DNA from: Candidatus Bathyarchaeota archaeon
GTDB lineage: Archaea > Thermoproteota > Bathyarchaeia > Bathyarchaeales > Bathycorpusculaceae
Direction: 5' to 3'
DNA: 64,000 nucleotides
Assembly (NCBI GenBank): GCA_963770935.1
Contig: CAVYRJ010000005.1
Location: 28,748-92,747 of the forward strand
This document shows, in pieces, positions 45,660 to 48,502 of the stretch (its first letter is position 1; each line of letters begins with the position of its first letter). The notes under the pieces are model-generated. The model was given only the letters and a program-made list of their open reading frames with translations. It was not told the DNA's origin and made no database searches. The position numbers and the translations under genes were made by a program.

Positions 45660-45804
45660 AAGAGATAGCTCGCCTGCAGCAGCCCAGATCTCCTATCTTG
45701 TTAAACCGGTATTTTTGTAAATCGCATATTTCATGGGGAATTTGGCAAACACTTAATAGTCGTTTCGAAAAACCTTTACTGCTATCCAAAAAGGGGAACA
45801 TGAA

Positions 45805-46998
45805 ATGCAAAACCGCCCAGCCATCGTTGCTGTTGGCCGAACCAAGTTTGGAGAATACTACGGCAAAGAACCCGAAAAACTAATTGAAGAAGCTTGGCTT
45901 GCCGCTTCAAACGAATACAACATCGAACGCAAAGACCTAGAAGCCTGCTACTTGTCAGACTGTTTTCTTCCCATTACCAACAAATTAGGCTTAGAAGAGG
46001 GTTTTCTTTCAGAGTTAACTGAACTTCATGTGCCCATGGAAGTCACCCGATCTTTTAGCGCCGCCTTGCTTACTGCATGCCACGCAATTCAAGCTGGTGT
46101 TTACAGTACGGTTCTGGTAGGTGGCATCGAGAAGATGACGGATCGCTGGGACAAAATCCGCGACGACCTCATGTTACTTGACGACCCTTGGAGCTACTAT
46201 GCAGGTGGAACACCTGAATCCAACCATGAACTCATGCTTCGTGCATACATAAAAAAACACCATATAACGGGCGAAAATCTCAATAAGCTTAACATGGCGT
46301 TGGCAGAGGTTACTGTTAAGAACCATGCAAACGCAACCAAAAACAAGTTTGCTCAGTTCCAAAGAAAAATCACCATCGAGCAGGTTCTTAATGCAAGAAA
46401 ATCGGCGCATAAACCCTTGGGACTCTACGATTTTGCTCCAGTCTCAGATGGTGCATCAGCATTGATTCTTACAAGCGACTTAGTTGCCAAGAAAACGACT
46501 AAGCAACCAATCTCTGTTTTAGGCATCGGTTCAGCAACCGATTATCTTAACTACCCAAAACGAGAAGACCTATCCCATTTTGTCGCAACTGAATATGCTA
46601 TGAAAAAAGCCTCTCAAATGTCAAAAGTAGCACCGTCGGATTTGCAGATTTTTGAAGTCTACGACCAATCTACCGTGATGGAGATGGTTTCTCTTGAGGA
46701 CTTAGGCTTCTGCGAACCTGGAACCGCTTGGAAAAGCATACATGGCTGCCAAAACTGCTATAACATCGGCGGAAAGCCGCTCTATGTTAACACGGATGGC
46801 GGCTTAAAAGCAAACGGCAATCCCTTGGGAGCAACTGGAGGCGCACAGATTTATGAGATTTACCGCCAACTCCGCGGTGAGGCTGGCGAAAGACAGGTTC
46901 ACCCTAGTGATGGTTTACTTCAAAATGGTGGTGTATTGGAGTTTGAAGGCTTTGGAACTAAAGCCTACGTTACTATTTTAGGAGTGGATAAGAATTAG
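45805..46998 (+). CDS. Thiolase-fold protein (archaeal acetoacetyl-CoA thiolase type) with degenerate active site
   Basis: GRTKFGE, GGIEKMTD, PVSDGASA, EDLGFC, GGLKANGNPLGATG. Confidence 0.9.
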   Translation: MQNRPAIVAVGRTKFGEYYGKEPEKLIEEAWLAASNEYNIERKDLEACYLSDCFLPITNKLGLEEGFLSELTELHVPMEVTRSFSAALLTACHAIQAGVYSTVLVGGIEKMTDRWDKIRDDLMLLDDPWSYYAGGTPESNHELMLRAYIKKHHITGENLNKLNMALAEVTVKNHANATKNKFAQFQRKITIEQVLNARKSAHKPLGLYDFAPVSDGASALILTSDLVAKKTTKQPISVLGIGSATDYLNYPKREDLSHFVATEYAMKKASQMSKVAPSDLQIFEVYDQSTVMEMVSLEDLGFCEPGTAWKSIHGCQNCYNIGGKPLYVNTDGGLKANGNPLGATGGAQIYEIYRQLRGEAGERQVHPSDGLLQNGGVLEFEGFGTKAYVTILGVDKN

Positions 46999-47029
46999 TA
47001 GTGAACCGATAGAGCGACGGGTTTCTTAC

Positions 47030-48502
47030 TTGGGCGACCGCTTAAAGGCATGTCGCTGTCAAACCTGCGGCAAAGAATACTTTGAAGTCCGCGATTACTG
47101 CAGCAACTGCGGCAGAAAAAGCTACGGAAAAATGGACAGCATAGACCTATTCTATGACAAAGGCAAACTAGAACTATGCACTTTCATCAACGAACCCACA
47201 AACAAGTTCACGAAACTCTCAAATTTCGTCTACGGTATCGTTTCTTTTCATGACGGCAAAATCCGAGTTCCCGCAAGGCTAACCGACCAGCTAATATGTG
47301 ATGGCGAGAATGTTGATTTAGCAAGCCTTGAAGGAAGAGAAGTAATTCCCCGCTTCCGAAGACGCTACTCGGTAGCAAAAAGTGACGTTATACCAACGAT
47401 TTCTCTGGCTTTCACCTTAGCCGACGAGTACTATCCACATCAAGAGTACACAGTTGTTCAACCAAGCAAGGAAAGTGAATTGCCAGGCATAGTTGGCTAT
47501 GGCGCTTACACCTCACGTTTCCGCATAAAAGAAGGCAGCTTGGAGCGTGCTGTTCCCTTCATCGACGAAGACGCTGTGACAGCGGCAGTTGAAGCTGGCA
47601 AACTTGCACTTATCCATTCAGGTCTTGACAGCTCATGGGTTGGAAAAGTCTACGTTGGCTCAGAATCAAACCCCTATGCCGTTAAACCAATAGCATCCAA
47701 AGTTGCTCAGGTTCTTCAACTCGGCGAAGAAGACGGCGATGTTCAAGGCGTCGACGCCGTTGATACCGAGTTTGCCTGCAAAGCTGGCACAAGCATGTTC
47801 AAAGATGCATCATCCCTTGTTAGTTATCCACGCTCAGGCATAAAGTACGCTATGGTTATCGGCGCCGACAACTCTCAAGCAGCACCCCGAGGTTGCCCAG
47901 GCGGAGAACTGGACACTTTTGTCGGCTACGGTGGCGCATCTTTCATCTTTGGAAAACACGATGTTATCGCTGAAGTTGAAGGCTGGTACTCATGTACATC
48001 TGACACTCCCGATTTTTGGCGCCGAGACGGCGAACAATATCCAATGCACGGCGGAAGATTCACAGGTGACCCAGCATACTTCAAGCATGTACGCAAAGCC
48101 GCCTGCAAATTAATGGAACGTTCCAACCTAAAAGCAAGCGACATAAATTATTTTGTTCCCCACCAACCCAACCCCCAGTTCCCAGTCCGCATAGCGAAAG
48201 AACTTGGGTTCAAAGAAGAACAGTATTCCCCCTCACTTTTAATCAACAAGTTCGGAAACACCTACTCAGGCTGCTCACTTGTTGGTTTGGCTGCAGTGCT
48301 TGATGTAGCAAAGCCTGATGAACGCATTTTAGTCGCAAGCTACGGTTCAGGTGCCGGAAGCGACGCCTACCTACTTAGAACCACAAGCCAACTGCTAGAT
48401 AAACGCAAACGCCAAAAAATCAACGTGAAATTCCAAGCCGAAAACCCCTTCATAGAATACGTAGACTATACAACGTATAGACGTCTCAAACAAGGAATGT
48501 AA
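47030..48502 (+). CDS. DUF35 (Zn-ribbon/OB) - hydroxymethylglutaryl-CoA synthase fusion
   Basis: N-terminal CQTCG..CSNCG plus OB fold, then EDAVTAAVEA, GSESNPYAVKP, EFACKAG, DFWRR, HQPN, GNTYSG, SYGSGAGSDA. Confidence 0.92.
   Translation: MGDRLKACRCQTCGKEYFEVRDYCSNCGRKSYGKMDSIDLFYDKGKLELCTFINEPTNKFTKLSNFVYGIVSFHDGKIRVPARLTDQLICDGENVDLASLEGREVIPRFRRRYSVAKSDVIPTISLAFTLADEYYPHQEYTVVQPSKESELPGIVGYGAYTSRFRIKEGSLERAVPFIDEDAVTAAVEAGKLALIHSGLDSSWVGKVYVGSESNPYAVKPIASKVAQVLQLGEEDGDVQGVDAVDTEFACKAGTSMFKDASSLVSYPRSGIKYAMVIGADNSQAAPRGCPGGELDTFVGYGGASFIFGKHDVIAEVEGWYSCTSDTPDFWRRDGEQYPMHGGRFTGDPAYFKHVRKAACKLMERSNLKASDINYFVPHQPNPQFPVRIAKELGFKEEQYSPSLLINKFGNTYSGCSLVGLAAVLDVAKPDERILVASYGSGAGSDAYLLRTTSQLLDKRKRQKINVKFQAENPFIEYVDYTTYRRLKQGM

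Follow-up and report, generated by a model that had tools for sequence, protein, structure and literature searches.

The stretch of DNA analysed here (the window), 64,000 nucleotides of a contig from Candidatus Bathyarchaeota archaeon, contains two adjacent genes on the same strand, with 31 bases between them. The first encodes a thiolase-like protein, and the second a DUF35 domain fused to 3-hydroxy-3-methylglutaryl-CoA (HMG-CoA) synthase (HMGCS). HMGCS is the enzyme with which the making of membrane lipids begins. A complex of thiolase, HMGCS and DUF35 is reported to be nearly universal in archaea, and the reason given for its existence is that channelling within it pulls the unfavourable thiolase condensation forward (PMC12960953, PMC11522927). 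The product of the first gene is most likely a non-catalytic descendant of acetoacetyl-CoA thiolase that partners the HMGCS fusion. The features of the two genes, each with the evidence for it, are as follows.

45805..46998, + strand: thiolase-fold protein, most likely a pseudoenzyme, 397 residues, ATG start (open reading frame, Pfam thiolase domains, match to 6esq_A, AlphaFold2 model, and the ratio of nonsynonymous to synonymous substitution rates, dN/dS)
46045..46047, + strand: codon of T81, the site of the lost nucleophilic Cys, with a 4-residue deletion just upstream in the alignments (alignments, codon check)
46660..46668, + strand: codons of Y286, D287 and Q288, in place of the H-D-C of HDCF, which holds the catalytic His and the acid/base Cys (alignments, codon check)
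46819..46821, + strand: codon of N339, in place of the His of the GHP motif (alignments, codon check)
47030..48502, + strand: DUF35-HMGCS fusion, 490 residues, TTG start (open reading frame call)
47030..47434, + strand: DUF35 domain, comprising a 4-Cys zinc ribbon (C10, C13, C24, C27) and an OB-like part (zf-ChsH2 at residues 4-30, 6esq_E at residues 6-97)
47477..48502, + strand: HMG-CoA synthase domain of the archaeal short type, catalytically intact judging by its residues (NF003274, 6esq_I, catalytic tetrad)

The thiolase-like protein has an SCP2-type thiolase fold. It matches the Pfam domains Thiolase_C_1 (PF22691, 9.1e-30) and Thiolase_N (PF00108, 6.3e-10), and in HMMER it matches 6esq_A, the thiolase of the M. 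thermolithotrophicus complex, at 1.6e-48. A model made with AlphaFold2 from an alignment of 121 sequences was confident (predicted local distance difference test, pLDDT, 93.4; predicted template modelling score, pTM, 0.94). The nearest structure to it, found using Foldseek, is again 6esq_A, on which it superposes with a template modelling (TM) score of 0.90/0.92 and a root mean square deviation of 2.1 Å. The protein nevertheless scores far under the curated cut-off of every NCBIfam thiolase model, reaching 282 bits with NF004720 (cut-off 420) and 228 bits with the equivalog for the M. thermolithotrophicus-type (Methanothermococcus-type) thiolase (cut-off 600).

All four residues of thiolase chemistry have been lost from this subunit. 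This confirms the initial annotation of the locus, which had described a full-length and intact reading frame without the catalytic Cys, His, Cys and His. In HMMER alignments with the solved thiolases 6esq_A and 7yvy_A, PMEVTRSFS aligns to VEAACASGS, EVYDQS to EVHDCF, and GNPLGATG to GH.LGATG, and the superposition of the AlphaFold2 model on 6esq_A gives the same result. The individual codons of the second motif are 46660-46662 for Y286 and 46666-46668 for Q288. A further change, absent from the initial annotation, is that the segment preceding the old nucleophile has lost 4 residues relative to intact thiolases. In homologues, single His mutations are already severe: H284A in an archaeal thiolase is reported to abolish HMG-CoA formation by the complex, and with H294Y a bacterial homologue has almost no thiolysis activity left (Liao et al. 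2026, PMC12960953). The window protein has the same His-to-Tyr change as H294Y, plus three more losses. We refer below to thiolases of this type as dead, and to those with the motifs complete as intact.

The initial annotation had also considered whether another Cys, such as that of the sequence LTACH, might stand at the nucleophile position. In the model, T81 closes the strand formed by residues 78-81, and the only Cys near it is C92 of LTACH, which is in the middle of the helix 84-96. Across the dead clade (defined by the tree described below), the residue at this position is C, Y or I. C92 is thus ruled out as a replacement nucleophile by its mid-helix place in the model and by this variability. 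An alignment of 17 diverse members of the clade contained no invariant or nearly invariant Cys column.

Position 81 itself is T, A, M, S, C or L across the clade, within a segment that is otherwise invariant; Cys occurs there in three of the seven members from outside the window's class (L049, L051 and L052), which are distant. The variability at this position is what a residue freed from constraint should look like. Directly after it come two invariant residues, R82 and F84, with a nearly invariant S83 between them. Among the 120 listed homologues (see below), the window protein and P0121, the residue at position 286 is Tyr in 97, Asn in 21 and Cys in 4, and it is also Cys in the thiolase-like protein of genome G065. 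Next to it, D287 is invariant, and Q288 and N339 are nearly invariant. The segment S214-D215-G216-A217, which we take to be the counterpart of the thiolase pantetheine loop, is invariant in the 17 diverse members, and this would fit a retained contact with CoA. Conservation of the dead thiolase is strongest in the N-terminal half.

A homologue search over 5.8 billion proteins listed at least 120 homologues at 79-99% identity. They come from many assemblies, and several are named Bathyarchaeota or Bathyarchaeia. None of the catalytic Cys, His, Cys and His is present at its position in any of the 120 listed homologues, and intact motifs were not found among them. Counting the window protein with them, the residues at these positions are T-Y-Q-N in 95, T-N-Q-N in 20, T-C-Q-N in 4, and different in two others. 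Selection was measured by the method of Nei and Gojobori, using our own script, on 10 pairwise comparisons of five genomes from the genus. The dN/dS was 0.043-0.079 for the dead thiolase, 0.029-0.055 for the DUF35-HMGCS fusion and 0.033-0.073 for the intact thiolase found elsewhere in these genomes, the ratios being rough because dS is near saturation (0.9-2.0). The values of dN are directly comparable, and are 0.045-0.10, 0.037-0.086 and 0.045-0.085 respectively. The dead thiolase is under strong purifying selection, as strong as in true enzymes. The low dN/dS and the catalytic losses shared by the listed homologues indicate that the gene is not decaying.

Taken by itself, the loss of every catalytic residue is what would be seen in a decaying pseudogene or as a sequencing artefact. 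We give this explanation virtually no weight. The frame is intact, the same changes recur in every one of the 120 listed homologues, which come from many assemblies, the dN/dS is 0.04-0.08, and the gene has spread across the class, as described below. The shared changes, low dN/dS and spread refute both decay and sequencing error.

The second gene was described in the initial annotation as an in-frame fusion of DUF35 to an HMGCS that keeps its Glu, Cys and His, and this description stands. The zinc ribbon domain zf-ChsH2 (PF12172) matches residues 4-30 of the fusion (24.7 bits, cut-off 23.2). No match to PF01796 was detected by the Pfam profile search, and residues 6-97 match the DUF35 chain of the M. 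thermolithotrophicus complex, 6esq_E (4.4e-9). The HMGCS domain begins at about residue 150 and matches 6esq_I (1.4e-77); the HMG-CoA synthase equivalog NF003274 covers residues 158-485 with 371 bits (cut-off 244). The catalytic residues E212 (47663-47665), C250 (47777-47779) and H378 (48161-48163), together with N410 (48257-48259), are invariant across 32 fusion proteins. A genome-wide search found no HMGCS besides the fusion. The suggestion in the initial annotation that the HMGCS might run a different condensation finds no support, given the intact tetrad and a score over the HMGCS equivalog cut-off.

The start of the fusion has two candidates. Most of its homologues have 502 residues and start 12 codons further 5' (MSSEPIERRVSY...). 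In the window, the codon at this upstream position is ATT (46994-46996), which overlaps the stop codon of the thiolase gene, and the frame is open from there. The true start is therefore either this rare ATT at 46994 or the TTG at 47030.

Of the 31 genomes sampled from the window's order, 27 have an orthologue of the dead thiolase that is at least 59% identical. The four genomes without one are G004 (71% complete), G011 (58% complete, with a contig end cutting the fusion gene), G020 and G028. At a threshold of 57% identity, the class sample contains orthologues in 49 of its 201 genomes, and 10 more have only relatives at 40-43%. The dead thiolase was found directly upstream of a DUF35-HMGCS fusion, adjacent and on the same strand, at all 23 dead-type loci examined. 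A phylum sample of 301 genomes was then searched for full-length DUF35-HMGCS fusions, which split into two groups by identity to the window fusion:

At least 63% identical: the window's order and 10 genomes of four families coded outside the window's class; neighbouring thiolase dead in 7 of 7 fetched
50-54% identical: 14 genomes; neighbouring thiolase intact (TEAAC, HDCF, GHP) in 8 of 8 fetched

Among the loci of the class sample there were five more intact thiolases adjoining fusions and one dead thiolase (G065), together with four operons of the classical kind, in which HMGCS, an intact thiolase and DUF35 are encoded by three separate genes. The initial annotation had started from the premise that the archaeal system is encoded by three genes. 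Such operons do occur in this class, but the premise is incomplete for it, because an intact thiolase followed by a DUF35-HMGCS fusion is common in other Bathyarchaeia. This arrangement has the same two-gene order as that in the window and the same N-terminal DUF35, and differs from it in that the thiolase keeps TEAAC, HDCF and GHP (13 of 13 checked) and in that 13 of 14 such genomes have a single thiolase-family match. The fusions also differ. Those partnering dead thiolases have a full 4-Cys ribbon, CxxC...CxxC (47057-47110 in the window), and, within the HMGCS domain, four inserted residues (PRGC), whereas those partnering intact thiolases have only three of the ribbon Cys and lack the insert.

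A maximum-likelihood tree of 60 rows was calculated, for which the bootstrap was not fully settled (correlation 0.969). All 15 rows of dead thiolases group in one clade, supported at 100/100 and set off by a long stem (0.68). The clade is sister (100/96) to the fusion-partner thiolases of other Bathyarchaeia, of which 12 of 14 rows have intact motifs. The second thiolase of the window's genome and the thiolases of the three-gene operons are in the other half of the tree. The fusion thus preceded the catalytic loss, which happened once and in situ, in the thiolase that was already the partner of the fusion.

Catalytic residues have also been lost within the sister clade. The fusion-partner thiolase of G034 (L032) is partly degraded, having no Cys, HDAT in place of HDCF, an intact GHP and a deletion of the same size. 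P0124, also in this clade, has GGGSASG, HDSY and GNP. The nucleophilic Cys was lost independently in these two, and decay of the fusion-partner thiolase subunit seems to recur.

More distant relatives were also found. In a scan of genome contigs, the best 80 of 547 relatives, which have no bearing on other phyla, nearly all have titles naming Bathyarchaeota or Bathyarchaeia; the rest are named uncultured archaeon, Nitrososphaerota, MCG-6, Bathycorpusculum and, once, Sulfotelmatobacter. Thiolase-like proteins without the Cys also exist with Thermoplasmata/Thermoplasmatota and Heimdallarchaeota/Heimdallarchaeia source names, and are placed in another part of the tree. A metagenome scan with one protein, P0126, gave only Cys-bearing relatives (20 loci), and no linkage to HMGCS was seen for the Cys-less Thermoplasmata and Heimdallarchaeota forms. 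Two metagenome contigs (L144 and L145) have Thermoplasmata-like HMGCS/thiolase/DUF35 operons in which the nucleophilic Cys is kept and HDCF is replaced by HDAF or HDSY.

Within the window's order, three genomes that belong to a single family (G028, G071 and G077, 95-98% complete) have a 454-residue HMGCS of the long type, which scores 312 bits with NF041302 and 268 bits with TIGR01835. Neither the fusion nor a dead thiolase was found in them, and each has one thiolase-family match. The dead thiolase is thus absent wherever the short, partner-dependent HMGCS is replaced by the long type, the switch in these three genomes being probably one event. Because the two are absent together, the function of the dead thiolase is tied to the short HMGCS and not to an independent pathway. 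Searches of G020 (98% complete) with one protein query and one family model yielded neither a short nor a long HMGCS, although this genome has four thiolase-family matches.

A thiolase fold without the Cys could also have become an enzyme with a new CoA-thioester chemistry (retro-aldol/aldol or decarboxylation), on the model of Ltp2, Sal and the trypanosomal SCP2-thiolase-like protein (SLP). These are reported to lack the nucleophilic Cys, to have YDHF, YDCY and YDCF in place of HDCF, and to dock on DUF35 (PMC12329534). The window protein shares the SCP2-type fold, the DUF35 partner and the Tyr in place of the His, having Y-D-Q-S at this site. Ltp2 (6ok1) and Sal (9myr) are structural matches to the model (TM 0.79-0.83), two polar residues (R82 and D287) are invariant and two more (Q288 and N339) nearly so, and the dN/dS is as low as in an enzyme. 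However, the aldolases are less similar in fold to the window protein than is the mevalonate thiolase 6esq_A (TM 0.90), and Tyr286 is not conserved in the orthologues, being Y, N or C. The second catalytic position of the aldolases (the His or Cys of YDHF and YDCY) is occupied by Gln, with Gln288 at the place equivalent to Cys304, the second catalytic residue of Sal (that of Ltp2 is Tyr344). The genomic partner also differs: it is an intact HMGCS fused to DUF35, and not a DUF35 protein of the ChsH2 or Shy kind, with a MaoC-type hydratase, in a steroid side-chain operon (PMC12329534). Furthermore, the gene is absent together with the short HMGCS in G028, G071 and G077. A new chemistry of this kind is therefore unlikely, and some ligand-related role of the dead subunit is possible, judging by the residues that are kept and by the enzyme-like selection.

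The initial annotation proposed searching the genome for a second, active thiolase, and there is a second one with intact motifs. The genome carries exactly two thiolase-family loci and one HMGCS. The second thiolase, on contig C8, scores 508 bits with NF004720, over its cut-off, and has the motifs TEAACGSSG, EVHDCF and GHPVGATG. It is followed by a stand-alone DUF35 of 132 residues with both Pfam domains, which is 28% identical to the fused DUF35; the dead and live thiolases of the genome are 38% identical. Four further genomes of the genus were fetched, and the pair is present in each of them. Its neighbours encode DUF1638 and CobD, and there are no reductase or dehydratase genes alongside. 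The genome also contains a genuine 3-hydroxyacyl-CoA dehydrogenase (PF02737, 203 bits; contig C4:70785-71330). Because of this, the intact thiolase may also serve a route of the butyrate or beta-oxidation type, which could itself yield acetoacetyl-CoA.

We consider it probable that the dead thiolase is a non-catalytic subunit of the HMGCS complex, and that acetoacetyl-CoA is made elsewhere. The two genes would then encode a derived archaeal thiolase/HMG-CoA synthase/DUF35 complex, in which the HMGCS is active and has its DUF35 scaffold as an N-terminal domain. The solved archaeal complex is described as consisting of HMGCS and thiolase, with two dimers of each, and four DUF35 (PMC11522927), with a single CoA site common to thiolase and HMGCS (PMC11522927, PMC12960953). 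Archaeal HMGCS is reported to lack the C-terminal subdomain of the bacterial and eukaryotic enzymes, its place being occupied by DUF35 (PMC11522927, PMC12960953). Because the CoA site is shared in the solved complex, the short HMGCS may need the thiolase body for its substrate chamber and assembly, even once the thiolase has ceased to work. The dead subunit would putatively hold the assembly together and keep the CoA-binding chamber that is common to thiolase and short HMGCS. A separate intact thiolase, here the archaeal type with a stand-alone DUF35 on another contig, would supply the acetoacetyl-CoA, which the HMGCS would take up either free or handed over. If the dead subunit is inactive, channelling of acetoacetyl-CoA from it is excluded. 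We infer both the physical binding of the subunits and a structural or CoA-site role for the dead one.

The distribution of thiolases over the genomes is in keeping with a supply from elsewhere. Among the 42 genomes with a dead-type fusion (at least 63% identical), 40 have two or more PF00108 matches and two (G027 and G107) have one; among the 14 with a 50-54% identical fusion, 13 have exactly one and the last (72% complete) has none; such matches are not gene counts, the three of G049 being two genes and the dead gene of G111 being split over two contigs. The kind of extra thiolase depends on the lineage. In the window's genus it is the archaeal type with DUF35, and in G049, G138, G441, G436, G299, G327 and G366 it is a classical PF00108 type scoring over 270 bits.

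The dead subunit might instead pair with or recruit the intact thiolase, so that one live and one dead protomer stand side by side and channelling to the HMGCS is kept. The ketosynthase/chain-length-factor pair of type II polyketide synthases provides an analogy. Thiolases are dimeric in the solved complex (PMC11522927). The presence of a second thiolase alongside in 40 of the 42 dead-type genomes is also as expected for such an adaptor, as is the fact that in the window's genus this thiolase keeps its own DUF35. Against this, a second thiolase that differs in kind between lineages is hard to fit with one conserved heterodimer interface, and the dead copy, which shares only 38% identity with the live one, is far from it in the tree. 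We regard such a mixed dimer as rather improbable.

There are several points that weigh against a non-catalytic subunit supplied from elsewhere. One is the difference between matches and genes noted above, and another is that the contrast between dead-type and intact-type genomes reflects one evolutionary event each, and is effectively n = 1. A pure scaffold would not have to keep the polar residues in and around the former active site, of which R82 and D287 are invariant and Q288 and N339 almost invariant, and the dead thiolase is conserved as tightly as a working enzyme. Finally, in G027 (97% complete) and G107 (95% complete), no other thiolase was found with three Pfam models, and no strong 3-hydroxyacyl-CoA dehydrogenase either; for these two genomes the supply from elsewhere is presumptive. 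Either the thiolase gene is in the missing 3-5% of each assembly, or they have another source of acetoacetyl-CoA.

These two genomes would be explained if the dead subunit still formed acetoacetyl-CoA in a non-canonical way, or if the HMGCS carried out both condensations while the thiolase-like pocket held the second acetyl-CoA. The invariant segment SDGA, which resembles the pantetheine loop, would suit this, as would the Cys at position 81 in L049, L051 and L052, three of the seven members outside the window's class. However, all four catalytic positions have been replaced and there is no conserved Cys in the clade, in a family where loss of a single His is enough to abolish or nearly abolish activity in the homologues (PMC12960953). 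Moreover, 40 of the 42 dead-type genomes have another thiolase-family match, and the two exceptions are assemblies at 95-97% completeness. Continued catalysis of this kind in the clade is very improbable.

A narrower proposal concerns only Bathyarchaeia of the G027 and G107 type. In these, the Cys-less thiolase/DUF35-HMGCS module could be the whole entry to the mevalonate pathway, with acetoacetyl-CoA arising by an undescribed route or chemistry, and the remodelled pocket (R82, D287, Q288, N339) might hold or activate a CoA thioester for the HMGCS. We think that this is a long shot. If true, the Cys-less forms of Thermoplasmata and Heimdallarchaeota would suggest that a start without thiolase is widespread in the isoprenoid synthesis of archaea.

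The arrangement is a variant of the archaeal thiolase/HMGCS/DUF35 system. All three modules of the window have their best match in the PDB in the M. thermolithotrophicus complex 6ESQ (chains 6esq_A, 6esq_I and 6esq_E), the HMGCS belongs to the short archaeal type and has its E/C/H/N tetrad intact, and the genes are adjacent. It differs from that complex in having a thiolase without the Cys/His/Cys/His and with a 4-residue deletion, in having DUF35 fused N-terminally to HMGCS so that there are two genes and not three, and in the presence of a second intact thiolase/DUF35 pair elsewhere in the genome.

The arrangement is also the mirror image of bacterial complexes characterised in 2026. PhlABC, MucABC and the ACAT/HMGS-DUF35 complex of P. 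fluorescens are likewise built from three modules, of which one subunit is non-catalytic, and are reported to retain an interfacial CoA chamber and to include a fused HMGS-DUF35 (PMC12960953). The initial annotation had called the window system the inverse of PhlABC, which fits the account of Liao et al. 2026: there, catalysis lies with the thiolase-like subunit, the HMGS-like one is dead, and the function is outside the mevalonate pathway (PMC12960953). The order of the fusion is also reversed, as DUF35 is described as C-terminal to HMGS in the fusions from Streptomyces albus and Pseudomonas fluorescens (PMC12960953, PMC11522927), and is N-terminal in the window.

The thiolase/DUF35 pair on contig C8 is of the same general kind as the ketothiolase/DUF35 pairs of archaeal fatty-acid synthase, several of which per genome have been reported for several archaeal phyla (Schmerling et al. 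2024, 10.1101/2024.07.05.601840), and differs from these in having no adjoining reductase or dehydratase genes. In the full-text literature (supplements and the 2018 structure paper being outside its scope), no paper was found on the Bathyarchaeia arrangement of fusion and dead thiolase, or on that of fusion and intact thiolase.

A large and environmentally abundant archaeal lineage thus keeps the architecture of the complex with its thiolase half switched off. This raises the question of what the thiolase body contributes beyond catalysis, for example to the CoA chamber or to the stability of the short HMGCS, and of how the cells manage the thermodynamics without channelling. It also raises the question of whether metabolic reconstructions of Bathyarchaeia are misled when these genes are automatically annotated as 'acetyl-CoA C-acetyltransferase'. 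The arrangements found here provide a natural series for the origin of a pseudoenzyme, from three genes, to a fusion with a live thiolase, to a fusion with a dead thiolase, to a long HMGCS.

The neighbours of the two genes in the window encode RadA, nicotinate phosphoribosyltransferase (NAPRTase), membrane proteins, an SSB-like OB protein and UvrB, and there are no further mevalonate genes near the pair in the window. HMG-CoA reductase, the next enzyme of the pathway, is on contig C8 (176458-177556, - strand), where PF00368 matches in two pieces, in two overlapping open frames of 307 and 140 residues, possibly because of a frameshift or a misassembly.

Sequence of the window was found in three sediment sequencing runs, each covering a small share of the stretch. 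One, probably of DNA, gave four 151-base contigs over the HMGCS. The other two are metatranscriptome runs from one study, and gave short contigs on 45800-46046 only, which is too little to show transcription. These contigs start at 45800 and 45806, at the ATG of the thiolase-like gene (45805), a weak hint of a leaderless transcript.

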